Source: a virus
Taxonomy: Duplodnaviria > Heunggongvirae > Uroviricota > Caudoviricetes
Reading direction: 5' to 3' (one strand)
IMG/VR virus record: IMGVR_UViG_2648501669_000003
Coordinates: 1 to 9,884 of that record
DNA length: 9,884 bases
A program made the position numbers and the translations under genes. The notes under the pieces are model-generated. The model was not told the origin of the DNA. It saw only the letters and a list, made by a program, of their open reading frames with translations, and ran no database searches. Below, piece after piece: positions 1 through 9,884 of the stretch (position 1 is the first letter of the stretch; every line of letters starts with the position of its first letter).

Positions 1-27
1 CGATGTTGGAAACCCCATAAAACCACA

Positions 28-45
28 ACCCGCATGGAGGCGGGT
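28..45 (-). terminator. Possible stem-loop immediately 3' of the methyltransferase stop codon
   Basis: Inverted repeat acccgc(28-33)/gcgggt(40-45) with a 6-nt loop; on the minus strand it is followed by tgtggttttatggggttt, which is U-rich but interrupted. Weak intrinsic terminator candidate. Confidence 0.3.
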
Positions 46-1095
46 TTAATTGCACATTGCCGAAATTTCACCGACTGTCTGTTCAAACCGTTCAGTTTCA
101 AGCTCAACGCCGATTACCCGACGCCCCAGCGCCATCGCCGCTTTTATTGTTGACCCGGATCCCATAAAGAAATCCGCAACCAAATCACCGGGGTGACTGC
201 TGGCCTCTATTATCTGCCGCAACATATCCGCCGGTTTTTCGCAGGGATGTTTGCCCGGATAATACTGCACAGGCCTGTGCGTCCAGACATCCGTATACGG
301 AACGGCAGCTGATACGGAAAAATAACGCCGCAAAGATTTGTACTCTTCCAGCAGGCTGGCGTATTGACGGTTCAGTTCACTGTATGCGCTGACCAGCTGG
401 AGGTGTGGCTTTTCCAGTTCCCCGCGCTGATGCTTTTCTGCTGCAACACGCGCAAACAATGCCTGCAGTTTTCTGTAATCAGCTTCGTTCGGTAACTGCC
501 ACTGACTGGCACCAAACCAGTGCGAAGCCATATTTTTCTTTCCGGTGGCTTCCGCTATCTGTTTTGACGTTATCCCCAGTGATTCCCGCGCATCACGAAA
601 GTAAGAAATCAGCGGGGCCATGACGTGCTGTTTTAGCTCGCGCCCCTTTGCCGCATAGCCGTCATTTTTGGGCTGGTATGGCCCCTGATAATGTTCTGCA
701 AACAGAATGCGTTCTGTTGCCGGGAAATACGCCCGCAGGCTTTCCTTGTTGCATCCGTTCCAGCGTCCGGACGGCTTCGCCCAGATAATGTGGTTCAGCA
801 CATTAAAGCGTTCACGCATCATGATTTCGGTGTCAGATGCCAGGCGATGACCACAGAACAGGTAGAGACTTCCGGCAGGTTTCAGTACCCGCCAGAATTG
901 CGCCAGACACTGATCCAGCCATTTCAGGTAATCATCGTCGCCCTTCCACTGGTTATCCCAGCCCTCGGGCTTCACTTTAAAGTATGGCGGGTCTGTGACT
1001 ATCAGATCGACAGAGTTTTCCGGCAAGGTCTGGATAAATTCCAGGCAATCAGCGTTGATTAACTCACAACTGGATATTTTTACAGTATTAGCCAT
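46..1095 (-). CDS. DNA methyltransferase, beta-class (N6-adenine or N4-cytosine), orphan
   Basis: 349-aa ORF with ATG at 1095 and TAA at 46-48. Catalytic DPPY motif near the N-terminus (LIVTDPPYF) and AdoMet-binding FxGxG motif near the C-terminus (DFFMGSGST); this IV-then-I order is typical of beta-class amino-MTases. No adjacent restriction endonuclease gene is visible. Confidence 0.85.
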   Translation of the reverse strand: MANTVKISSCELINADCLEFIQTLPENSVDLIVTDPPYFKVKPEGWDNQWKGDDDYLKWLDQCLAQFWRVLKPAGSLYLFCGHRLASDTEIMMRERFNVLNHIIWAKPSGRWNGCNKESLRAYFPATERILFAEHYQGPYQPKNDGYAAKGRELKQHVMAPLISYFRDARESLGITSKQIAEATGKKNMASHWFGASQWQLPNEADYRKLQALFARVAAEKHQRGELEKPHLQLVSAYSELNRQYASLLEEYKSLRRYFSVSAAVPYTDVWTHRPVQYYPGKHPCEKPADMLRQIIEASSHPGDLVADFFMGSGSTIKAAMALGRRVIGVELETERFEQTVGEISAMCN

Positions 1096-1194
1096 AGATC
1101 AATAAGCACTTCTCTGATAGGCTCATACCGCTTTTGCGCAAAGCAGATGGCTGGCAGGTGCCGCTAACACCCACCAGCCGCCCATTACCACAAA

Positions 1195-1219
1195 TAAAAA
1201 AGCCTTCACTGCGGAAGGC
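1195..1219 (-). terminator. Rho-independent terminator overlapping the stop codon of the small HTH ORF
   Basis: Minus-strand hairpin GCCTTC(1219-1214)/GAAGGC(1207-1202) with a 6-nt loop, followed by a TTTTTTA run (1201-1195). Confidence 0.5.
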
Positions 1220-1403
1220 GTCTGTAACAACCGAACTGATAATCTGCCAGACCCGCCATAACAAGCTGAGTCAGTATTAACTGGCAGCGTTCGCGTGAAA
1301 GGTACGTATTCTGCGCAATTTCCCCGACGGTCGCCGGTTCGGTGACGCTTAATTCATTAAACACCACTCTGGCAGTTTCGGTCATATCCTGCTGTTTTAG
1401 CAT
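1206..1403 (-). CDS. Small hypothetical protein with helix-turn-helix-like segment (65 aa)
   Basis: The ORF-track frame 1206..1541 begins at a TTG inside the upstream terminator, so the start was moved to the in-frame ATG at 1403, which has GGGA about 9 nt upstream. An ATG at 1385 is an alternative. The segment TVGEIAQNTYLSRERCQLILTQL looks like an HTH. Flanked by intrinsic terminators on both sides. Confidence 0.4.
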   Translation of the reverse strand: MLKQQDMTETARVVFNELSVTEPATVGEIAQNTYLSRERCQLILTQLVMAGLADYQFGCYRRLPQ

Positions 1404-1526
1404 GTCTTTTTCCCTTTTCTGGTTAACGTGACATACCAATAGCTCTTGTCGAAAAAGCCAGCAAGCTGAAAGACCGGTATTCGCAACCATCAGCGCGTTT
1501 AACGTCCTGTACCGTTTTTCAGGCAT

Positions 1527-1549
1527 AAAAAAAACCCGCAAAAAGCGGG
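1527..1549 (-). terminator. Rho-independent terminator about 80 nt downstream of the Q-like gene (tR'-like)
   Basis: Minus-strand RNA reads GCCCGC-UUUUU-GCGGG followed by eight U (plus-strand A-run 1527-1534). Its position after a Q-like gene matches the lambdoid pR'/tR' arrangement. Confidence 0.6.
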
Positions 1550-1628
1550 CTCTTTCAAATGTCCATGTCTGCTATTCGCCTCGCGGTACAGCTTTGCGAA
1601 GCGTACCGGCATTGAAGCAGTTTTTACG

Positions 1629-2195
1629 TCAAAAAGCAATAACTTTTTTCTCTATACCAAAAGCCATAACCATTGGTTTGTACAAAATAAATTCTGCCAC
1701 CTTTAGCCAATGCTCAATGCGTCTTTCACAGGTTCTTAAACTCCATTCCGGGTGTGCATCATTCAGCAGTTCAGCCATTTTGCGCTTAGTCATCCCCCGC
1801 CCCACATAACGCTGACTCAGGACATTGAGCAGCCCGGGATAACCGGCCAGGGCTTCACCAATAACCCTGTCGATTATTAACGCCTCTGAATCGGTACAAT
1901 GCGCCAGCCAGCTCTTTTGCTTACCATTGATCATCTCTCGCAAAAAAGCCTCAAGTTCAGGTTTGTCCAGACCCGCTTTTTTCATCCTCCGGAGCGCCTC
2001 GTTAATTGCCGTTTTTGTCAGCTTTTTAGAGGTCAGTAATTGGTTGAACATATTTCCCGTCTTACCGCCGCCAATATACGACCAACGCCCCCACATACGC
2101 AGTTTCCCCTGGAGCCAGACACTTTCCAGCGTTTTCAGGCGTAAATGCTCACCGCTTTTGCCTGTAATTTCCGGGTATATCATATTTACGCTCAC
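1629..2195 (-). CDS. Putative late-gene antitermination protein (Q-like)
   Basis: 188-aa ORF directly downstream of rusA and upstream of an intrinsic terminator, which is the canonical lambdoid position of Q. The annotated start is a GTG overlapping the rusA stop (GTGA); an ATG at 2183 is an alternative. Family assignment is positional plus vague recall, not verified. Confidence 0.55.
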   Translation of the reverse strand: MSVNMIYPEITGKSGEHLRLKTLESVWLQGKLRMWGRWSYIGGGKTGNMFNQLLTSKKLTKTAINEALRRMKKAGLDKPELEAFLREMINGKQKSWLAHCTDSEALIIDRVIGEALAGYPGLLNVLSQRYVGRGMTKRKMAELLNDAHPEWSLRTCERRIEHWLKVAEFILYKPMVMAFGIEKKVIAF

Positions 2196-2551
2196 TCACT
2201 TTCAATTTTGTAAATCTTCACGCCCAACCGACCACCAGGAACGACCTGACCGCGCACAATATTGATTTCATCAAACTGCTCGTCGTCGATAAGCAACCGC
2301 GCATGTGTCAGTGCATCCAGTGGTGCTTTCAGAATATTGTCCAGGTCACGACGGCGCTTATCCGGCGGCTCTGCAATGATCTTTATCGCCAGCCTTCCGG
2401 ACAGGTTTAATTTCAGTCGCTGCTGGCGAACAATAAGTGCCACATCCCGGCGATAACGCTCACCGGCTTTTGATACAAAATATGTGCTGCCACGACGACG
2501 CCAGTAGGTGTTCACCGTCGGCGGGTAAGGCAAAACAAACTCTATACGCAT
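2192..2551 (-). CDS. rusA: Holliday-junction resolvase RusA
   Basis: 119 aa with ATG at 2551 and GAGG SD 8-11 nt upstream. Recognisable RusA family pattern (VLPYPPTVNTYWRRRG ... DKRRRDLDNILKAPLDAL ... DDEQ), including the conserved RRRDLDN acidic catalytic region. Confidence 0.85.
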   Translation of the reverse strand: MRIEFVLPYPPTVNTYWRRRGSTYFVSKAGERYRRDVALIVRQQRLKLNLSGRLAIKIIAEPPDKRRRDLDNILKAPLDALTHARLLIDDEQFDEINIVRGQVVPGGRLGVKIYKIESE

Positions 2552-2563
2552 CAGTAACCTCTT

Positions 2564-3613
2564 TTACCCGAGCACACCGGTTGCAAAGGCGTGATCAAGA
2601 AAACGAAAAATTAAATCAACCTGAGAACCATGCTTTTCTTCGAACGCCAGCGGATCCGCATGAAGTTCGTTGTGATGCTCCCGGCACAGCGGTAGCGTGA
2701 AAATATCGTGGGATTTTGTCCCCATTCCGCCCTGACCATGACCAATCAGGTGATGGGGATCGTCGGCTGGCTTACCACAACACGCACACGGCTGTGTCTT
2801 CACCCAGCGCGTGTATTTCTCATTTATCCAACGGCGACGTTTAGGTCGCTTCATGAAAGATTCCGGAGACTCCGGATCTACGGCAATGCTGACCACCGTC
2901 TTTTCCTGTGGTGCGTTCTGTTGCTGGTGGATGTGAGGCAACGGCGCAAGATTTTTTGTGCGCTGCTTCAGTATGCTGGTGGCGGTCTGCTCTCCCGGTA
3001 TGATGTCGCTTTCGCGGTACACCGAGCGGATTTTTTCCGCACGTAACCCCAGAGAACGACGTAATACTGCCTCCGGTAGCGCGTCCGCCAGCTGATTGCG
3101 GACCGCCCACCAGGATAATTCAGCCAGAGATAATTCACGCTCCTGCGTACCGCTTATTGCGTGACCGATGACGTCAATCATCCATGCTGACAGGTTTTGA
3201 TGAGCAAGTTGCTCGAGTGATTCGGATGTCTGGTCACGCAGCTGGTTGTCGCAGTGCCAGCACAACACCATCGCGCCGGTACCGTAACGATGTATGACGG
3301 TTTCACTGTGATGGTAGTCGCCATGAGGCCACTGGCAGGATTTGACATGACGCAACAGCCAGTCAGACAGTGCACCAGCGCCGCCAGCAGCACGAATCAC
3401 CCGTTCGTTGCTGAAAAATGGCAGTAATGATTTATCTTCCGCCAGCGGCTGGCGAACGGCAGGAACGACTCCGGACGGCAGACCGCGCATGCTTTTTGGC
3501 TCCGGTTCAACCAGCACTCTGCCGTTATGGAATACCTGCATGGATTCACGACCTGGCTTAACGATAACCACCCCAAGTTCCGGTACCGGAACAGGTCGAA
3601 GCAATACCCGCAC
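2564..3613 (-). CDS. DUF968 family protein with C-terminal HNH-like nuclease motif (YdfU-like)
   Basis: 349 aa with GTG start at 3613, GGAGG SD 4 nt upstream, 1 nt after the upstream stop. The C-terminus carries a Cys/His cluster (CACCGKPADDPHHLIGHG ... LCREHHNELH) consistent with an HNH fold. Same position relative to hok and Q as ydfU in K-12 Qin (from memory). Confidence 0.75.
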   Translation of the reverse strand: MRVLLRPVPVPELGVVIVKPGRESMQVFHNGRVLVEPEPKSMRGLPSGVVPAVRQPLAEDKSLLPFFSNERVIRAAGGAGALSDWLLRHVKSCQWPHGDYHHSETVIHRYGTGAMVLCWHCDNQLRDQTSESLEQLAHQNLSAWMIDVIGHAISGTQERELSLAELSWWAVRNQLADALPEAVLRRSLGLRAEKIRSVYRESDIIPGEQTATSILKQRTKNLAPLPHIHQQQNAPQEKTVVSIAVDPESPESFMKRPKRRRWINEKYTRWVKTQPCACCGKPADDPHHLIGHGQGGMGTKSHDIFTLPLCREHHNELHADPLAFEEKHGSQVDLIFRFLDHAFATGVLG

Positions 3614-3614
3614 G

Positions 3615-3887
3615 TTACCTCCAGATGCGTTGCTGGAATGTGCGGGACGGACGCGGTGGGCGTTCGGAATAAGGGAGTCTGACGTAGATTATCCAGTGAC
3701 GATAATCGAGGCTGAGGGCTTTCCTAAACTCATACCCACGTCTGCGGTAGTTCTGAATCAGCCATTCGGCCTGTTCTTCAGTGCAGGGATCGTGCTGATA
3801 CCAGTCATATTTGAATGCGTGTGAACGCCGCCCATGCCGGATGGCAAGGTCGGTATCAGAATTGTGAAATTTGGTTTTGTGCGCCAT
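3615..3887 (-). CDS. Hypothetical protein (90 aa), in the position of rem in Qin
   Basis: ATG at 3887 and TAA at 3615-3617; its 3' end carries the SD for the DUF968 gene, suggesting coupling. No recognisable motif. Confidence 0.55.
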   Translation of the reverse strand: MAHKTKFHNSDTDLAIRHGRRSHAFKYDWYQHDPCTEEQAEWLIQNYRRRGYEFRKALSLDYRHWIIYVRLPYSERPPRPSRTFQQRIWR

Positions 3888-3954
3888 CTGTTTTCTCTGC
3901 TGGCGCAGCAGGTGTCAGGTGTTCAGGCTGACGTGCGAATTGTAAACCAGAATG

Positions 3955-3985
3955 CCAGGAAAAAACAAAACCCGCCGAAGCGGGT
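3955..3985 (-). terminator. Rho-independent terminator of the hok transcript
   Basis: Minus-strand hairpin ACCCGC(3985-3980)/GCGGGT(3975-3970) with loop UUCG, followed by UUUUGUUUUUU (3969-3959). Confidence 0.6.
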
Positions 3986-3990
3986 TAAGT

Positions 3991-4005
3991 GCGGGTGCGT
4001 TGAGG
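3991..4005 (-). promoter_or_regulatory. fbi-like 3' element of hok mRNA, complementary to the transcript 5' end
   Basis: Plus-strand 3991-4005 gcgggtgcgttgagg is the reverse complement of plus-strand 4368-4381 cctcaagcacccgc apart from one extra base. Within a single minus-strand transcript these would pair 5' end to 3' end, as in the tac/fbi fold-back of hok mRNAs. A separate perfect 9-bp hairpin lies at 4026-4047. Confidence 0.45.
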
Positions 4006-4054
4006 ATGCCTGACTCATCAGAGGTGGCGAGGGATTTCTCCCTCGCCTGGTCTC

Positions 4055-4210
4055 TTACTCCTCAGGTTCGTAAGCTGTGAAGACAGCGACCTCCGTCTGG
4101 CCGGTTCGGATTCGTACCTCACAGAGGTCTTTCCTCGTTACCAGTGCCGTCACTATGACGGTTAAACAGATGACAATCAGGGCGATTAACATCGCCTTTT
4201 GCTGCTTCAT
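4055..4210 (-). CDS. hokD: Hok/Gef family type I toxin (51 aa), matching HokD/RelF
   Basis: ATG at 4210 with AGGAG SD 9-13 nt upstream and TAA at 4055-4057. Product MKQQKAMLIALIVICLTVIVTALVTRKDLCEVRIRTGQTEVAVFTAYEPEE has the single TM helix and conserved Cys/Glu of Hok proteins and matches my recollection of E. coli HokD. Confidence 0.8.
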   Translation of the reverse strand: MKQQKAMLIALIVICLTVIVTALVTRKDLCEVRIRTGQTEVAVFTAYEPEE

Positions 4211-4267
4211 AGCCTGCTTCTCCTTGCCTTTCGGCACGTAAGAGGCTAACCTACATGTGTTCAGCAT
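4055..4267 (-). CDS. mok-like overlapping reading frame (translational coupling frame for hok)
   Basis: ATG at 4267 with GAGG about 9 nt upstream; the frame runs through and is co-terminal with hok, as in hok/mok loci. Whether it is translated is not determinable from sequence. Confidence 0.35.
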   Translation of the reverse strand: MLNTCRLASYVPKGKEKQAMKQQKAMLIALIVICLTVIVTALVTRKDLCEVRIRTGQTEVAVFTAYEPEE

Positions 4268-4367
4268 GGATTGGCCTCAGATTAATGTTAAGCGTCTTGC
4301 AGGACGCGTAATGTTAACTGGGGCTTTTCTCTATCTGCCTTTTGGTGTTCATGCCTGAGGCAGATAG

Positions 4368-4420
4368 CCTCAAGCACCCGCAGCAATTCTACTTAACTCT
4401 CCTTTTCCCGCAAACCGTTT
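4368..4420 (-). promoter_or_regulatory. Putative hok promoter and 5' end (tac-like element) of hok mRNA
   Basis: Minus-strand TAGAAT -10 candidate (plus 4386-4391) about 6 nt upstream of a GCGGGUGCUUGAGG element (plus 4368-4381) that is complementary to the 3' element at 3991-4005. The -35 is weak. Confidence 0.35.
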
Positions 4421-4500
4421 TTATCCCCATCGGCAAATCGAATACACCACCAGCGCCACCGCCATCGCAATTCCTACCGTTGTGAATGCTTCAGGCCAGC

Positions 4501-5244
4501 TCACTTATCCCCCTCCTCATGACCTCCCCGCTCCCACGGGATGACCAGATCAACATCCACCTTCGCAGCAGCTATTTCCTCCTGTGGAAGGGTGCCATAA
4601 AATTTACGAAGACTTTTCGACATTCTCTCGAAAAAATTAGCCATGTATAAAACACCATCCCCCGCATCCTCTCTGATGCACGAACTTGTATACGCCTTTA
4701 GCAAATCCAGAAACGATATACGTAATGCTCCAGCACACGTATCAAATAAATCCTCATCCTGATCACCTTCAATGTAGGGAATTATCATATACGGCGGCAC
4801 TGATACCCACACCTCAACATCATCAGCACAACTAACACTGATACTCGCAGAGAACGATTCAGGGACATCATCCTCTGGTTCAGAGCCAGTTAATGGCACG
4901 CTCCATTCCTCACCAGTCCAGACGAATTCTTCCAGTAGCTCAACCCCATCGTTCGGTAACACTTGTGCTGGCGGCGCTGCGTAAAGTGGTGTTATTTCTG
5001 CCCGAAAGTCACCTATTTCATGCAGTCGCACCCACCGTTCGGCTTCTACTTTGTCAGAATACAGAGCAGTGAACGTATTATATTCATTGTCAATTTGCGT
5101 GAAGGTTGCCTTCCACGCCACTGGCTCTGCTTCCAGTGATGCCAGAGCAATCCGTGCCACTTCCATTTGTTCGCTACGAGTAAGCCCGTTTTCAAGCGGA
5201 TTTTTAATGAACAATTCAATACGTTCTTTGGTGATAGCGTTCAT
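4501..5244 (-). CDS. Hypothetical acidic protein (247 aa), paralog of the upstream gene; unknown function
   Basis: ATG at 5244 with AAGGA SD, starting 3 nt after the upstream stop. Shares an N-terminal module with the 140-aa protein (RIALASLEAEPVAW ... PLYAAPPA). The C-terminal two-thirds is strongly acidic (EPEDDVPE, EGDQDEDLFD, HEEGDK). Confidence 0.75.
   Translation of the reverse strand: MNAITKERIELFIKNPLENGLTRSEQMEVARIALASLEAEPVAWKATFTQIDNEYNTFTALYSDKVEAERWVRLHEIGDFRAEITPLYAAPPAQVLPNDGVELLEEFVWTGEEWSVPLTGSEPEDDVPESFSASISVSCADDVEVWVSVPPYMIIPYIEGDQDEDLFDTCAGALRISFLDLLKAYTSSCIREDAGDGVLYMANFFERMSKSLRKFYGTLPQEEIAAAKVDVDLVIPWERGGHEEGDK
5111..5160. repeat. Nucleotide-level paralogous segment (copy A) shared between the two adjacent genes
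   Basis: About 38 of 50 nt identical to 5517-5566 by hand alignment (core ctgcttccag[t/c]gatgccag). Encodes the conserved LASLEAEPVAW motif in both proteins. Confidence 0.5.
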
Positions 5245-5247
5245 GTG

Positions 5248-5670
5248 TCATTCCTTAACCTGCAACTGCTTCTTAACCAGTTTACGTAGATGTGCCACAG
5301 CCATAGAAAGAGTTTCCACCGCTCGTTTATCCAGCTGTGGGGACAGAGACACCAGTTCGTTTATTGCGATCTCAATTCCCTGTGCCTGCACTGTGGGAGC
5401 TGGCGGCACACGATACAGCGGAATTACACGACGCGGGTCTGCGTATTTATCTGGAGGACAAGGTAATAAATAACCTAAACCAATTTGCTCAACATCTCGC
5501 AGTTCCTCGTCATCAGTCCATGCAACTGGTTCTGCTTCCAGCGATGCCAGCGCGATACGAAACACATTGGCAAGCAGGCTGCTTGAAGATTGGTTATCGT
5601 GCGCCGGGTCGCTCAGGAAACCAGTGATGAATGATTTAATTTCCGCGTTTTCTCTGGTAGTAGTGGTCAT
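5248..5670 (-). CDS. Hypothetical protein (140 aa), paralog of the downstream acidic protein; unknown function
   Basis: ATG at 5670 overlapping the upstream stop (ATGA), GAGG SD. Contains the shared module (VFRIALASLEAEPVAW ... PLYRVPPAP) and an S-rich segment. Confidence 0.75.
   Translation of the reverse strand: MTTTTRENAEIKSFITGFLSDPAHDNQSSSSLLANVFRIALASLEAEPVAWTDDEELRDVEQIGLGYLLPCPPDKYADPRRVIPLYRVPPAPTVQAQGIEIAINELVSLSPQLDKRAVETLSMAVAHLRKLVKKQLQVKE
5517..5566. repeat. Nucleotide-level paralogous segment (copy B)
   Basis: Counterpart of 5111-5160 at about 76% identity over 50 nt. Confidence 0.5.
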
Positions 5671-5876
5671 TTGTTAATCCTCAAAACTTTATGCCCGGGC
5701 GCAAAAGCACGTGTTTTGTCTTTACTTATTCGCCACCCGTCTTTACGGGCTTCTTTTGCACAACCAGACCATGACGTACCGATATACTCACCGAAGTCTG
5801 GCACTGGATATACACCTTCCGTACACTGGCGGCAGTCACAATAGAGATGCATGGTGTAACTTGCGGCAATAGCCAT
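5667..5876 (-). CDS. Small Cys-rich hypothetical protein (69 aa)
   Basis: ATG at 5876 with strong AAGGAG SD 7-12 nt upstream. Contains CDCRQC and a further Cys (SGC), a possible zinc-binding motif. Stop overlaps the start of the 140-aa gene. Confidence 0.65.
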   Translation of the reverse strand: MAIAASYTMHLYCDCRQCTEGVYPVPDFGEYIGTSWSGCAKEARKDGWRISKDKTRAFAPGHKVLRINK

Positions 5877-5887
5877 ATCAGTCTCCT

Positions 5888-6265
5888 TTAGTGCGCATAT
5901 AACAGTGATTTTTCCAGCGGTTTTGCTCTCCTGCGCTCTCCCCCAAGCGCATAACGTGCTTCTACCGGGTCTTTGTCTTCATATTCATAATTGACGCTTT
6001 TAACCATCGCTACACAGCACTCATTGCAGCATCTATAGGACATAAGCTCGCCATCAAATTTCCATGTTGTGCTGCGGTGTATTTCACCCTTTGAGATTTT
6101 TCCGGCGCATATGTGGCATGTATATTCACCGCGAGAGGTAACGATTTTATTCGATAACTCAATATCGAATGGCGCACCAAAATCACCTTCAAAAAGATAA
6201 AAATCCAGAGCGTCTCCTAAATCTTGTTTACTGTATCTCTGCTGCTCTTTTGTGGTAATGGTCAT
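5888..6265 (-). CDS. Cys-rich hypothetical protein (125 aa), putative zinc-binding
   Basis: The ORF-track start at 6355 is a TTG that overlaps the upstream gene, so the ATG at 6265 was used (AAGGA SD; 1 nt after the upstream stop). Motifs CHIC and CCNECC. Confidence 0.6.
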   Translation of the reverse strand: MTITTKEQQRYSKQDLGDALDFYLFEGDFGAPFDIELSNKIVTSRGEYTCHICAGKISKGEIHRSTTWKFDGELMSYRCCNECCVAMVKSVNYEYEDKDPVEARYALGGERRRAKPLEKSLLYAH

Positions 6266-6266
6266 T

Positions 6267-6485
6267 TCAGTTTTCCTTATATGGATTAATTTTATTGTGC
6301 AGTGCGTTGAACGGGGCCCATACAACGTCGTTATACAATTCAATAACGGGCTCAATTACTTTTCCGATTCCCCATACCAGAATTAAAGGGGATATCGGTA
6401 TCATCAATACGATAAACAGAATGAGAAACAGAAATTCTGTCGCTCTACTTTTTCGCGGATATTTTTTTCTGAATAATGTAGTCAT
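6267..6485 (-). CDS. Small hydrophobic (single-TM) hypothetical protein (72 aa)
   Basis: ATG at 6485. Basic N-terminus (RKKYPRKSR) followed by a hydrophobic stretch FLFLILFIVLMIPISPLILVWGIG typical of a membrane helix. The SD is weak or atypical. Confidence 0.55.
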   Translation of the reverse strand: MTTLFRKKYPRKSRATEFLFLILFIVLMIPISPLILVWGIGKVIEPVIELYNDVVWAPFNALHNKINPYKEN

Positions 6486-6517
6486 TTCTTACCGCCCTTT
6501 CGGGCGGCCCCCTGACA

Positions 6518-6730
6518 TTAATCGTTGTGATAACTCATAGCTTCATTTGCAGCATCAACTGGATCAACATCCCACCAGCAATAATTTGGGTCGGCTCCTT
6601 CAGGTGTCCACGGCTCTAATTCATTTTTTGCCGCATTCTCGTCGCCAGTAATTTTAAAAATCTGCTCAGAAAATTTCCTCACCCACTCGTTATATTTTTC
6701 CGCATTAATGGTTTTCTGTGTATTTAACAT
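6518..6730 (-). CDS. Hypothetical protein (70 aa)
   Basis: ATG at 6730 with GGAGG SD 8 nt upstream and TAA at 6518. Acidic, Trp-containing C-terminal half. Confidence 0.65.
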   Translation of the reverse strand: MLNTQKTINAEKYNEWVRKFSEQIFKITGDENAAKNELEPWTPEGADPNYCWWDVDPVDAANEAMSYHND

Positions 6731-6780
6731 AGATATACCTCCAGTTAAGGATTTGATTTTATTTACAGTGCTAAATTTAT

Positions 6781-7137
6781 TTATTCAGTTCTGGATTTTG
6801 TCGCCCTGCGTATCCGCGCTTTCGCGTTACGCTCAATCTGAATTAACTTTTCTATATTTTTCCGTCTTTCCTGTTCCTCCTGGCGCAATAGCCTTACATC
6901 ATCTGCCAGTCTGGTTTCTCTTTTCGCCACTGAGAGCATCCAGTCAAACGGCTCCACAACTGCACCGCAGATTTTACAGCGGACCTGACGCTCTTTTTCG
7001 TCAACCCGGACAGAGGCGTGATGGCAATATGGTCTTTCCGATGGCTCATAAAGAAAATTAACCTGATTACGTGGGTCATCCTCTTTTGCCGGAAATAAAA
7101 CAATATTACTTAACTCATCTTCTGGTTTTATTTCCAT
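6781..7137 (-). CDS. Hypothetical protein (118 aa) with zinc-ribbon-like motif and basic coiled-coil tail
   Basis: Start moved from the ORF-track ATG at 7179 to the ATG at 7137, which has a strong AGGAGAGGAG SD immediately upstream. Motif CHH-x14-CKIC, then a Lys/Arg/Glu-rich helical tail. Confidence 0.6.
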   Translation of the reverse strand: MEIKPEDELSNIVLFPAKEDDPRNQVNFLYEPSERPYCHHASVRVDEKERQVRCKICGAVVEPFDWMLSVAKRETRLADDVRLLRQEEQERRKNIEKLIQIERNAKARIRRATKSRTE

Positions 7138-7606
7138 ACTCCTCTCCTTTGATATGAATGCCAGCAACACGTAGTTCATGTTCTAAGTCAGCCAGATAAA
7201 GCCAGCAGCCATTTTCTTTAGGTATCATGACGTGGCGCTCATCATCATTTATCGGATGTCCATATCGAAGGCCGTAGCGAGTCGGCAAATGAACTTCCCG
7301 CGCTTCCAGCTCTTTAATGCGTTCCTCGAGTTCGTAGACTCTGCATTGTTCTTTATCATCAATCAGATATAACCCAAGACATTCGCTTTCTACCCAGCCA
7401 CCGAAATCATGATCGTAACGCTCACACGAAAACTCACCATCGCTGTCCTTTGTTGGAATGGTGTAACTGTCTAATGGGCCGCCATACGTCGGCACATTGC
7501 CCAATTTCGGATGCTCAATCCACATGAAAAATGCACGTCCGGTTATAGGACAAATATCTGGTCGCCATTGGTTACTCACTGTTTGCCTCCTGGAAAATAA
7601 CTGCAT
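7115..7606 (-). CDS. Hypothetical protein (163 aa)
   Basis: The ORF-track start at 7645 is a GTG with no SD, so the ATG at 7606 (GGAG about 10 nt upstream) was chosen. The start is uncertain and overlaps the DUF4406 3' end by 35 nt. No recognised family. Confidence 0.5.
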   Translation of the reverse strand: MQLFSRRQTVSNQWRPDICPITGRAFFMWIEHPKLGNVPTYGGPLDSYTIPTKDSDGEFSCERYDHDFGGWVESECLGLYLIDDKEQCRVYELEERIKELEAREVHLPTRYGLRYGHPINDDERHVMIPKENGCWLYLADLEHELRVAGIHIKGEEYGNKTRR

Positions 7607-7871
7607 GCCCCAGTTTCTCCGCCAGTGCCAGTTCTGCCTTAGCACCTGCTGACCGCTGCCAGCCTTTCAGCATGTAAATCGCATCCACACAACGAATCAT
7701 TGCCATGCAAATATCCATGTAGTGTGGCTGTGTCAGCCCGTCCGGAAGTACTGCCGGGCTTAAGACTGTATGCCCTTCCCGTTTCAGTTCCTCTTCCGCA
7801 TTGTGGAACGCCTCACGGTTGAAATTTTTATACCCGGTCATTGGACCGGCGATATAGACTCTCACCCTCAC
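7572..7871 (-). CDS. DUF4406 / nucleoside 2-deoxyribosyltransferase-like protein
   Basis: 99 aa with GTG start at 7871 overlapping the Ren-like stop (GTGA) and AGGAGG SD 7 nt upstream. N-terminal VYIAGPMTG motif and C-terminal IYMLKGWQRSAGAKAE segment are characteristic of this family. Confidence 0.75.
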   Translation of the reverse strand: MRVRVYIAGPMTGYKNFNREAFHNAEEELKREGHTVLSPAVLPDGLTQPHYMDICMAMIRCVDAIYMLKGWQRSAGAKAELALAEKLGHAVIFQEANSE

Positions 7872-8263
7872 CCCATCACCTCCTGAAAGTTTCCCCGATA
7901 AAACGCCAGCACTCGCTGCATAACCTCACTCTTCCGGCACTCGCGACAGATTATGTTCTGGCTCCTGTCGTAGCGGCGTATCTCTCCGTCTGGTAACTTC
8001 CGAATCAGCGTCTGGTCAGTTGTTTTCTCCGGTGTCTTACGCCATTCACGATACGCCTGCTCTGATGCAAAAACACCGTATTCCCCGGACATGTATAAAT
8101 CACCACAAGCCAGTACATCCACAAGGCAGCGTCGGACCGAATGCCAGCCTGCTCCCGTCGCTCTCTCCAGTTGCGACATCGTCATGCGTCCATTTTTGCG
8201 TACCAATCCGATAATTCGTGCCTTCAGCTCTTCCCGCTGTTCGGGTGTAAAAGGTTTCGCCAT
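7868..8263 (-). CDS. Ren-like protein
   Basis: 131 aa with ATG at 8263 and GGAGGG SD. The C-terminal segment ICRECRKSEVMQRVLAFY resembles my recollection of lambda Ren (FKECRQSAAMKRVLAVY), and the gene sits immediately after the P-like gene, as ren does in lambda. Confidence 0.6.
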   Translation of the reverse strand: MAKPFTPEQREELKARIIGLVRKNGRMTMSQLERATGAGWHSVRRCLVDVLACGDLYMSGEYGVFASEQAYREWRKTPEKTTDQTLIRKLPDGEIRRYDRSQNIICRECRKSEVMQRVLAFYRGNFQEVMG

Positions 8264-8292
8264 AAACCCTCCCGGTAAAATTACTTATCAAC

Positions 8293-8958
8293 TCAAACAA
8301 AACCTGCCGCTTTCCTGCGTTCATATTCCTGTTTCAGCAACTCAATTGGCGTTGGTCCCGCAGGACGTATGGGTGCTGCCAGTTGCCTACGGACGGGTGG
8401 AACACTCAGTCCGTTACCAACATGCTTTGCCCATTTCGCCAGTTGCCGTTCTGCAAGCCGTTTTAACTCCCCTTCGGTCATCTGGCGCTCAATCCCCTTT
8501 GAACGCATCTCGAGACAAATGTGATACAGCACAGGCTGAGACCACGGGTATTTATCGCTTCCGTCGTATCGCCAGGACTCGTTGCGCCAGCGTCGGTACT
8601 CCTCCATCACGTTATCCACCGTCAGACCAAATGGATTTGCCCCGCTCTCCGAAATCAGCGCCACAAACTCAGCCAAGTCCGGAGGCCATGTTTCACCTGC
8701 CCTGCAACGGTCCATGCACTGGCGGCAGACCAGCCGGATTTGCTGCTCAGTCATCGCGCCAATCTGTGCAATCCAGAGCTTCGAAGGTGCGGCCCCGTTC
8801 TTCTGGGTCCAGCGGTTCGAATAAACCTCCCCCATGAGTTCCCACAGCTTCCACGCCGTTTCCGTCGCTGATAAATCCATTTTCACGTTCCCACTGCTCA
8901 CGTGCTGCCCGAATTTCCTGAACTGCCCGTGATGCGGTGCCACCTGGTGCGGCTGCAT
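8293..8958 (-). CDS. Replication protein P-like (DnaB helicase loader); start uncertain
   Basis: The C-terminal 150 aa align by eye to lambda P (PPDLAEFVAL ... YPWSQ ... ELKRLAERQ). ATG at 8958 has a GGGGGTGA SD but makes a 212-nt out-of-frame overlap with the O-like ORF. Alternative in-frame ATGs lie at 8880 and 8754; the latter overlaps the O-like stop by 8 nt. Confidence 0.7.
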   Translation of the reverse strand: MQPHQVAPHHGQFRKFGQHVSSGNVKMDLSATETAWKLWELMGEVYSNRWTQKNGAAPSKLWIAQIGAMTEQQIRLVCRQCMDRCRAGETWPPDLAEFVALISESGANPFGLTVDNVMEEYRRWRNESWRYDGSDKYPWSQPVLYHICLEMRSKGIERQMTEGELKRLAERQLAKWAKHVGNGLSVPPVRRQLAAPIRPAGPTPIELLKQEYERRKAAGFV

Positions 8959-9787
8959 GGCTCACCCCCTTGCTGACTGGTTTAACCTGCGCCCTGACGT
9001 GATTTACGTGACGGGCGAATTTCTGCTCCCACTGAACCTGCGTAAATACTTTCCCCTCCGCTGCCCAGTAGTCCCGGAAGGCGGCAAGTTCAGCAGGTGT
9101 AAATTCCGGCTCCGGCAAAGCCATCCCCCACACCGCAGCCCGTCGTCGAAAATCCCGTGACGGATGCCAGCTATCGGTCATCGGAAATTTTCCGATGGGT
9201 TCGCTCAGGCCATCCAGGAATACGGGTGGCACTGCCTGTAACGACAAAACTTCCTGCTCACTGGTCGGAGCACTCTCGCGTGCATTATGTGTGGGGTTTA
9301 GATCTTTGGGTTCCTTTGGGTTCCGTGATCCGTTTTTGGGTGTCTTTGATGGAAAATTTGGGTGTCTTTGGTTATTTTCCATGCAGCTAAGAGTTCCGTT
9401 TTTGGGGCTGTTTTGTGCTGAAACATAACCATTTTCGGTACTGTTTTTATTAACAGTACCAATTTTACCCACCTTTAAAGACTCCCGTTTTTGGGTGTAT
9501 TCAGGCTCGGCAACGCTTTCTTCTACACCGATAAGTCGGTACACTACGATTTGCTTTGTTCGGCCTTTTCTCTCACCGGTATCAACAATTAACCCAATCT
9601 CCATCAGGTGTCGTAAGCTGTCCTGCACAGTCTTTTTGTTCAGCTCCGTTACTTCTGCCAGTGCAGATACAGACGGGTATGCACACAAATCGGCACCGCA
9701 CATATCAGCAAGCCAGGTCAATACTGACTTACTGGATGAACTGCCGGTTTTCACCTTTTTAGCCCATCGTAGTGCATCGATACTCAT
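8747..9787 (-). CDS. Replication initiator (O-like): N-terminal wHTH DNA-binding domain fused to a DnaT-like C-terminal domain
   Basis: The ORF-track start at 9862 is a TTG, so the ATG at 9787 (MSIDALRWAKK, GGGG upstream) was used. The N-terminus looks like a winged HTH. The C-terminal segment GKFPMTDSWHPSRDFRRRAAVWGMALPEPEFTPAELAAFRDYWAAEGKVFTQVQWEQKFAR matches the C-terminal region of E. coli DnaT as I recall it. The central linker is low-complexity and encoded by the iterons. Confidence 0.75.
   Translation of the reverse strand: MSIDALRWAKKVKTGSSSSKSVLTWLADMCGADLCAYPSVSALAEVTELNKKTVQDSLRHLMEIGLIVDTGERKGRTKQIVVYRLIGVEESVAEPEYTQKRESLKVGKIGTVNKNSTENGYVSAQNSPKNGTLSCMENNQRHPNFPSKTPKNGSRNPKEPKDLNPTHNARESAPTSEQEVLSLQAVPPVFLDGLSEPIGKFPMTDSWHPSRDFRRRAAVWGMALPEPEFTPAELAAFRDYWAAEGKVFTQVQWEQKFARHVNHVRAQVKPVSKGVSHAAAPGGTASRAVQEIRAAREQWERENGFISDGNGVEAVGTHGGGLFEPLDPEERGRTFEALDCTDWRDD
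9304..9499. repeat. Iteron array (putative phage replication origin) embedded in the initiator gene
   Basis: Direct repeats: ctttgggttc twice in tandem (9304-9313, 9314-9323); ccgtttttggg at 9330-9340, 9396-9406 and 9485-9495; tttgggtgtctttg at 9335-9348 and 9357-9370. An AT-rich block follows at about 9410-9480. This is analogous to ori-lambda inside gene O. Confidence 0.6.
9437..9460. repeat. 9-bp inverted repeat with 6-bp spacer inside the AT-rich part of the putative origin
   Basis: ggtactgtt-tttatt-aacagtacc; a perfect palindrome in the AT-rich segment. Confidence 0.4.
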
Positions 9788-9884
9788 ACGAACCCCTGGC
9801 AGACATTTGTTTATCTGCAAAGTAATATTGGTATTGCTGACGATACGCACGCTTGAAAGCAATGGCTTTTTCTATAAGCTCGTC
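9759..9884 (-). CDS. Partial CDS: C-terminal about 41 codons of an upstream gene, truncated by the window edge
   Basis: Minus-strand frame open from the window edge to TAA at 9759-9761 (DELIEKAIAFKRAYRQQYQYYFADKQMSARGSYEYRCTTMG). It has more G-initial codons than the alternative TTG-extended O frame and overlaps the O-like start by 29 nt. Identity unknown. Confidence 0.3.
   Translation of the reverse strand, partial: DELIEKAIAFKRAYRQQYQYYFADKQMSARGSYEYRCTTMG

Follow-up and report, generated by a model that had tools for sequence, protein, structure and literature searches.

A methyltransferase gene of the M.EcoGII family at the early-to-late junction of a lambdoid prophage and the structured leader RNA that accompanies it

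The stretch of DNA analyzed here (hereafter the window) comprises 9,884 nucleotides (nt), positions 1 to 9,884 of IMG/VR virus record IMGVR_UViG_2648501669_000003 (Caudoviricetes), and is the early-right to late junction of a lambdoid prophage. Near one end lies a gene for a 349-residue DNA methyltransferase that, judged by its sequence, belongs to the M.EcoGII family of adenine methyltransferases. Together with an open reading frame (ORF) for a 65-residue winged-helix protein, this gene forms a conserved two-gene 'moron' cassette, which resides in lambdoid prophages of Enterobacterales between the antiterminator gene Q and the lysis or Shiga toxin (stx) genes. The analysis establishes the family by sequence, the genomic position, the terminators, a block resembling the late promoter PR' and the lack of a partner nuclease in relatives. 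We consider it probable that the gene is expressed late, in dependence on Q, and that its product is a non-specific adenine methyltransferase that pre-methylates progeny DNA. An earlier sequence-only reading of this locus, made from the letters alone, is correct in substance, but what it found is known: an M.EcoGII-family gene where such genes are usually located. The sole element of the locus that looks new is a structured leader RNA in front of the methyltransferase gene.

The protein matches PF01555 (N6_N4_Mtase) over residues 29–340 with E = 1.5e-44 and 153.1 bits (cut-off 26.7). Its DPPY motif occupies residues 35–38, and its FxGxG motif, here FMGSG, occupies residues 310–314. Since motif IV (DPPY) lies N-terminal to motif I (FxGxG), which binds S-adenosylmethionine (SAM), the enzyme is of the beta class, and the earlier description of a 349-residue beta-class methyltransferase holds. 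Alignment with M.EcoGII, which also has 349 residues, runs end to end with 298 of 348 positions identical (86%), two gap positions and no rearrangement, the two proteins being about 50 substitutions apart; the reference sequence was machine-read from the SUPREM supplement (PMC11551740 supplement 5) and carries a few scanning errors. Among 154 distinct relatives (63–98% identity), 145 alignment columns are at least 98% conserved, and the window protein keeps all 145. In a sequence search of the PDB, the solved structures that align best are M.BceJIV, M.RsrI, CcrM and M.MboIIA, and they cover residues 8–114 and 281–344 only; none of the PDB matches provides a solved structure over residues 113–280. 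These alignments define a non-core insert of approximately 168 residues (113–280) within the 271 residues that separate DPPY from FMGSG, a distance previously given as about 200 residues. An AlphaFold2 model built with 25 close homologues has a mean predicted local distance difference test (pLDDT) score of 63.8, with values of 22–59 over much of residues 100–290. The Foldseek matches to this low-confidence model that rank highest are all beta-class methyltransferases with TM-scores of only 0.4–0.6; the modelled insert is too poor to inform on DNA recognition, and only the class-level fold matches are usable.

The sequence-only reading had placed a possible target-recognition domain of unknown specificity between the two motifs. 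An orphan enzyme whose central domain reads a motif, and which guards against one restriction system, would be in line with the site specificity of most beta-class type II methyltransferases and with the NCBI label of the relatives, 'site-specific DNA-methyltransferase'; given the low confidence of the insert model, a recognition domain is also structurally possible. However, the 86% identity and collinearity with M.EcoGII include the insert, and across the 154 relatives the insert is not hypervariable, its mean column identity of 0.81 standing beside 0.86 and 0.81 for the catalytic cores. An insert as conserved as the cores is unlike a diversifying recognition domain, and 'unknown specificity' is therefore not the best description. 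With a characterised member of the family acting without a sequence requirement (PMC5778455), we regard a sequence-specific enzyme as very unlikely. By analogy with M.EcoGII, the window enzyme would modify adenine without a sequence requirement.

The published properties of the family bear directly on its control. M.EcoGII is prophage-borne and methylates adenine in any context, acting on DNA and to a lesser degree on RNA; its constitutive expression results in slow growth and unstable clones, and the native lysogen lacks the methylation of M.EcoGI and M.EcoGII (PMC5778455). Similarly, M.EcoMV, a prophage methyltransferase resembling M.EcoGI, is untranscribed in strain EC958 (PMC4659465). The role proposed for the family is anti-restriction by self-methylation (PMC5778455; PMC4659465), and the same role, suggested earlier for the window gene, agrees with this published view. 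The cassette is widespread. Phage 1720a-02 carries an enzyme very similar to M.EcoGII (PMC5778455); this phage matches the window cassette over 64–1539 at 86% nucleotide identity, and its protein is 93% identical to M.EcoGII. Genes L23-L24 of phiP27, located between Q and stx2e, correspond to the cassette at 91.6% nucleotide identity; many Stx2 phages carry it at 83–90%, and in Stx2a_WGPS2 it is placed between Q and stx2. A 1560-nt query spanning the cassette matched 2863 of 5426 complete E. coli genomes and was covered to at least 80% in 1861 of those, while a protein search retrieved 2977 relatives across Enterobacterales.

The order of elements on the minus strand places the cassette behind the signals of late transcription: a candidate PR' with a putative pause element at the end of Q is followed by the terminator tR', a promoter-like motif, the winged-helix ORF, a hairpin or weak terminator, the structured leader and the methyltransferase gene (Table 1). 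The Q protein of the window also matches phrog_753, 'anti-termination protein Q-like' (E = 1.3e-80), and the candidate PR' overlaps the Q stop codon (1631-1629). A promoter scan of positions 1..2600 found no promoter, and the candidate PR' was seen only by comparing post-Q regions. The alignment of this DNA revealed a PR'-like block that unrelated phages share immediately behind their DUF1133-type Q genes, and at the PR' positions distant relatives carry near-consensus elements (TTGACT-16-TAATAT in the Xenorhabdus locus L068 and CTTGAT..TCATAT in L054). Furthermore, every aligned post-Q region, including those of relatives whose Q is 44–47% identical, carries TA[ACT]GCT at this position; by analogy with the PR' regions of lambda, 82 and 21, this element is a candidate sigma70-dependent pause site. 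Transcription starting from PR' near 1604 and stopping at tR' would yield an RNA of about 75 nt. An isrK-like Rfam match at 1602-1529 (E = 0.22) is far below threshold.

Two minus-strand intrinsic terminators had been reported ahead of the methyltransferase gene. The first, tR', is a textbook example, whereas the second, over the stop codon of the winged-helix ORF, was found but is weak (stem 1219-1202; free energy (dG) -8.9, z -1.8). Both recur in relatives. Of 180 distinct upstream regions, 147 have a terminator-like hairpin ahead of the cassette, and phage 683R6 has a terminator at the same relative place with a different loop. The hairpin at the winged-helix stop is kept in all genera, even without the small ORF, and is terminator-like in 92 of 180 distinct regions, forming a strong terminator in some. 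Since the phiP27 match stops at 1539, inside tR', it is also within this terminator that the Q module joins the cassette. Among the upstream neighbours in 78 loci are Q proteins of four Pfam families, PF06530 (26), PF06323 (15), DUF1133 (13) and PF03589 (10), with DUF968 and RusA also frequent.

Q, the PR'-like promoter and the terminators make Q-dependent expression, as already proposed, the most economical reading. In the mechanism that we propose, transcripts from PR' would end at tR' in the lysogen and the methyltransferase would stay unmade, which matters because its unregulated expression is harmful. After induction, Q-modified RNA polymerase would pass both terminators, so that the methyltransferase would be made together with the late genes and would heavily methylate the replicating phage DNA ahead of packaging. 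Progeny entering new hosts would then be shielded simultaneously from many adenine-sensitive restriction systems. The leader and the winged-helix protein would probably add a layer of control that helps to keep the enzyme off in the lysogen. The activity, the non-specificity, the dependence on Q and the anti-restriction role are all predicted from the biochemistry of M.EcoGII and from lambdoid late-gene control.

The orphan status of the gene rests on relatives, since the window stops 45 nt past the methyltransferase stop codon. Within the window, no endonuclease was found upstream of the gene among the ORFs and Pfam matches. The closest relatives are TUM1881 (97.6% nucleotide identity over 9-1560) and RM8082, in which a gene for a 104-residue hypothetical protein, on the opposite strand, lies downstream together with those for TerB, DUF3927, two holins and an endolysin; in phiP27 and Stx2a_WGPS2, the cassette is followed by tRNA genes and then by stx2. 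In 67 loci from many genera, phage lysozymes (31) and holins make up most of the two closest downstream ORFs, and no nuclease family appears among the 25 listed of 35 matched families. The position of the window end would allow the methyltransferase to be half of a restriction-modification system with its nuclease just outside, the case that was said to overturn the sequence-only reading, and a BsuBI/PstI nuclease does lie upstream of the gene in one of 78 related loci. That nuclease, however, may belong to a separate PstI-type system; Stx2a prophages carry such a system with its own methylase (PMC3893438). Judged by TUM1881, RM8082 and the families listed for the 67 loci, no cognate endonuclease adjoins the gene in relatives, and a complete restriction-modification system is so improbable as to be nearly negligible. 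The orphan assignment, as originally made, is thus upheld. Other cargo was observed at the same place: eight of the two-nearest downstream ORFs of the 67 loci are Tad2-like (Thoeris anti-defence 2) genes, and HicAB, ParDE and RelBE toxin-antitoxin pairs are frequent downstream of the methyltransferase. The gap between Q and the lysis genes looks like a hotspot for counter-defence cargo.

The methyltransferase had been taken for the first gene after Q and tR'. Instead, that position belongs to the 65-residue winged-helix ORF, which stands ahead of it; we discount the 111-residue ORF that a mechanical call opens at a TTG within the terminator. The AlphaFold2 model of the 65-residue protein is confident (pLDDT 91.3) and has an H-H-H-beta-beta topology. 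Its structural neighbours are generic winged helices, namely IclR, MarR, the N-terminal domains of O-methyltransferases, the RNA-binding SelB and Z-alpha, and comparison of its sequence with the PDB and PADLOC gave no informative hit; an Xre-type Pfam match is also absent. A DpnI-type winged helix that reads N6-methyladenine was also considered, with evidence neither for nor against it. The small ORF lies approximately 100–200 nt upstream of the methyltransferase gene in most loci, including Klebsiella, Salmonella, Xenorhabdus, Photorhabdus and Providencia prophages; of the 108 viral contigs that extend far enough, 101 contain it. In E. coli strain 43905 (L005:3041-3238), the winged-helix ORF occurs without the methyltransferase, beside a truncated DUF3927 gene, and is probably a deletion remnant of the cassette. 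The 137 distinct upstream regions compared extend from E. coli to Xenorhabdus, and in 129 of them the motif CTTGCTG..AGAG..TAnnTG stands in front of the small ORF, 57–71 nt before its ATG. The -10 of this motif is non-canonical, ending in G, and sigma-54, sigma-32 and sigma-E readings are ruled out by the spacing. The CTTGCTG region and the palindrome GCTTTAGCGCTAAAGC are conceivable targets of the winged-helix protein.

The leader, which precedes M.EcoGII-family methyltransferase genes throughout Enterobacterales, separates the winged-helix ORF from the methyltransferase AUG over about 140 nt, with full-length copies at, for example, L009:5208-5347 and L030:3866-4006. It is more conserved than the flanking genes and stays with the methyltransferase where the small ORF is absent; a coding explanation for this conservation was rejected, as 1-nt indels are frequent. 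RNAalifold applied to 55 distinct copies yields a three-way junction in which P0 is UGGGC/GCCCA, P1 a hairpin of roughly 12 bp and P2 CGCU/AGCG. A small P3 comes next, and both the loops and the joining strands are highly conserved. For the covariation test, 57 copies were realigned to a covariance model. Pairing is kept in 97.7% of the aligned cells, and 10 of the 20 pairs have changed on both sides, giving 42 both-side-changed cells compared with 8.1 ± 2.5 in shuffles; none of 500 shuffles reaches 42, and slid controls give at most 11. One P2 pair occurs as C-G in 27 copies, as U-A in 11 and as A-U in 10. At one P1 pair, U-G alternates with U-A, which points to sense-strand RNA rather than DNA as the conserved form. 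The linkage to the methyltransferase is tight: a 21–22-nt signature of the leader occurs at no fewer than 120 viral-contig sites, and in 117 of the 120 listed a methyltransferase ATG follows 52–53 nt downstream, with two of the three exceptions at contig ends. The sequence GCUU..UGAUC, immediately ahead of the AUG, is complementary to GGUCA.AAGC of the P2 loop and 3' strand, and these positions are 95% paired but too invariant for a covariation test. A hairpin AUCAG/CUGAU just before the AUG was rejected by eye, its common substitutions being uncompensated.

The leader does not appear in the collections that we consulted. A search of Rfam 15 on the sense strand with the leader of the window and with the full-length copies of L009 and L001 returned no match even at E ≤ 5; the Rfam hits obtained were all below threshold and driven by terminators. 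The prophage small RNAs AgvB and AsxR were rejected as its identity: they are 51–60 nt long, are located 3' of moron genes and have Rfam entries. The word 'upstream' is never used in the M.EcoGII paper (PMC5778455), and the leader is very unlikely to have been described there. In Xenorhabdus and Photorhabdus (loci L062-L091), the roughly 150 nt before the ATG hold a shorter, different leader that the covariance model misses. This leader still opens with a P1-like hairpin, GGCUGG..CCAGCC, and may represent the same element in diverged form.

A cassette with its own control is one way to read these observations together: its own promoter would drive the winged-helix protein, this protein, the leader or both would gate the methyltransferase, and Q would not decide. 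The wide recurrence of the promoter-like motif, the linkage of the winged-helix ORF to the methyltransferase in most loci, the strong covariation of the leader with its strict linkage, and the methyltransferase AUG without an evident Shine-Dalgarno sequence before it are all consistent with such a unit. However, the -10 lacks its key final T and the promoter scan is empty, the cassette lies nearly always right behind Q in late orientation, and the family is silent in lysogens (PMC5778455, PMC4659465). Because the leader persists in loci without the small ORF, the winged-helix protein is not its obligatory partner. We consider a self-contained unit unlikely, albeit compatible with Q-dependent late expression. 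The winged-helix ORF, the promoter-like motif and the leader, all missed in the sequence-only reading, nevertheless mean that control of the methyltransferase may not rest on Q alone, and in this respect the initial proposal needs qualification.

In the window itself, positions that had passed for plain spacer (1096-1191) hold a remnant of this leader. It scores 66.8 bits (E = 3e-15) against covariance model R1 with model positions 46-71 missing, compared with 99–172 bits for full-length copies, among which the divergent L078 is the exception at 63.9 bits. The loss is a 40-nt deletion within 1150-1142, between direct repeats CCATCTGCT. An exact search of the viral contigs found the deletion junction in one only, L214, which is 92% identical across the cassette. 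Tentatively, and at slightly less than even chance, we propose that the leader is an undescribed cis-regulatory RNA that gates translation of a potentially self-harmful non-specific methyltransferase, with the window deletion as a natural regulatory mutant. Gating could operate through base-pairing between the 12 nt that precede the AUG and the P2 loop plus 3' strand. The input might be SAM or S-adenosylhomocysteine, the neighbouring winged-helix protein, or the methyltransferase itself, the last because the family enzyme also acts on RNA.

The deletion, in a leader otherwise strongly conserved, would also befit a window copy that is a decaying, non-functional remnant in a cryptic prophage; M.EcoGII itself was described on a cryptic prophage, and not one of the complete E. 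coli genomes searched covers at least 80% of the window. Decay is nonetheless distinctly improbable, because the methyltransferase ORF is intact and full length with every near-invariant residue kept, and the adjacent genes for Q, RusA, DUF968 and replication also have intact ORFs. Moreover, the recurrence of the same deletion junction in a contig of only 92% identity indicates that the allele persisted or arose more than once.

Several observations weigh against Q-dependent late expression of a non-specific, protective enzyme in this particular prophage. The 86% identity to M.EcoGII is no proof of identical specificity, and the activity and expression of the window copy are predictions from its sequence. 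The anti-restriction role is, for the phage, still a proposal of the literature. The CTTGCTG motif between tR' and the small ORF may render part of the cassette independent of Q, and the second terminator is weak in the window copy. With its leader broken by the 40-nt deletion, regulation here may depart from the family norm. In addition, the downstream neighbour in the source genome itself lies outside the window.

The remaining features of the window are those of its wider setting. All long ORFs are on the minus strand, and no tRNA genes were found within the window. Its modules occur separately in thousands of genomes at 90–95% identity. The DUF968 protein shows a weak HNH-like C-terminal match (PF16784, E = 1e-4); among 145 ORFs scanned in related loci, DUF968, with 21, is one of the commonest families upstream of Q.

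Table 1. Features of the window, listed from the downstream to the upstream end of the transcription unit.
Feature	Coordinates	Strand	Evidence and remarks
Terminator-like hairpin directly after methyltransferase stop	27..46	-	Terminator scan; z -0.74, no better than shuffled; candidate only
M.EcoGII-family beta-class N6-adenine DNA methyltransferase, 349 residues	46..1095	-	PF01555, M.EcoGII alignment, family columns
Leader remnant	1096..1191	-	P0 5' strand (1184-1180), P1 (1179-1149) and P3 kept; P2 and P0 3' strand lost
Hairpin over winged-helix ORF stop codon, weak terminator or attenuator	1192..1219	-	Terminator scan; stem 1219-1202, then U6AUUU
Winged-helix protein, 65 residues, phrog_331 (annotated 'TrmB family'), function unassigned	1206..1403	-	phrog_331, E = 1.4e-37
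Promoter-like motif CTTGCTG-N17-TATTGG	1436..1465	-	In front of winged-helix ORF
tR'-like intrinsic terminator	1527..1550	-	GCCCGC-UUUUU-GCGGG + U8 (1534-1527); dG -21.2 kcal/mol, z -5.0
TACGCT, -10-like element (TAnGCT)	1600..1605	-	About +1..+6; candidate sigma70-dependent pause / Q-loading site
Candidate PR'	1611..1639	-	-35 TTGCTT (1639-1634), 17-nt spacer, -10 TTCAAT (1616-1611)
Q antiterminator, DUF1133 / Phage_antitermQ type, 188 residues	1629..2195	-	PF06576, E = 9e-106; PF06530, E = 3.9e-7
RusA	2551-2192	-	Between DUF968 and Q
DUF968 protein, 349 residues	2564-3613	-	Upstream of RusA and Q
Replication-initiator-like ORF	9862-8747	-	First in transcription order; nin-region ORFs next

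Earlier publications already cover the enzyme family together with its residence in prophages, its silence in lysogens and the anti-restriction role presumed for it, and about half of the complete E. coli genomes contain the cassette. What is added here is the consistent wiring of the family behind Q, PR' and one or two terminators, which provides a concrete account of lysogen silence. In clinically important Stx2 phages the cassette forms part of the transcript from Q to stx2; the DNA of induced Stx phages may therefore be hypermethylated, which, if true, bears on host range and on methylation-based typing. Also added is the finding that the enzyme travels with a winged-helix gene and with a covarying leader RNA that has no family in the RNA library Rfam. 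If the leader is a switch, it would represent a new restraint on a promiscuous nucleic-acid-modifying enzyme and a useful part for EcoGII-based tools.

Among known systems, the closest are M.EcoGII and, with it, M.EcoGI of E. coli O104:H4 C227-11; M.EcoGII and the window enzyme share the length of 349 residues, the beta motif order, 86% identity and the prophage location; the window gene differs as an allele (about 50 substitutions), and its leader has the 40-nt deletion. L23-L24 of phiP27 and the 'DNA methylase' of Stx2a/2c/2d phages constitute the same two-gene cassette (83–92% nucleotide identity), downstream of Q and upstream of tRNA, stx or lysis genes, whereas the window Q is of a different, DUF1133 type joined to the cassette inside the terminator. 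A paper on late promoters (PMC6266700) makes no statement on the methylase. The alpha-class promiscuous adenine methyltransferases of phages, with relaxed or absent specificity and a presumed anti-restriction role (Drozdz et al. 2012, as cited in PMC5778455), resemble the window enzyme, as far as that citation describes them, in being phage-borne and in these presumed properties; they differ in having FxGxG first and DPPY last and an insert that is not homologous. M.BceJIV, CcrM, M.RsrI and M.MboIIA align with the core (residues 8-114 and 281-333, E about 4e-24) and are the top fold matches, yet they are site-specific, with inserts that are much shorter or different. Control by C proteins in restriction-modification systems likewise places a small protein with a DNA-binding fold upstream of a gene that is harmful if untimely. 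In contrast, the 65-residue winged helix is not an Xre-type helix-turn-helix, there is no nuclease, and no C-box was recognized on visual inspection; a control link between the winged-helix protein and the methyltransferase by this analogy is a conjecture. Finally, the region behind Q parallels PR'-qut-tR' of lambda, the source of its 6S RNA, in having a promoter at the end of Q, a -10-like element past the start, a strong terminator and a predicted RNA of about 75 nt, while the Q family and the sequence are different and the window start and pause are placed from sequence. The short RNA between PR' and tR' of the window presumably resembles the StxS short transcript of Stx phages.

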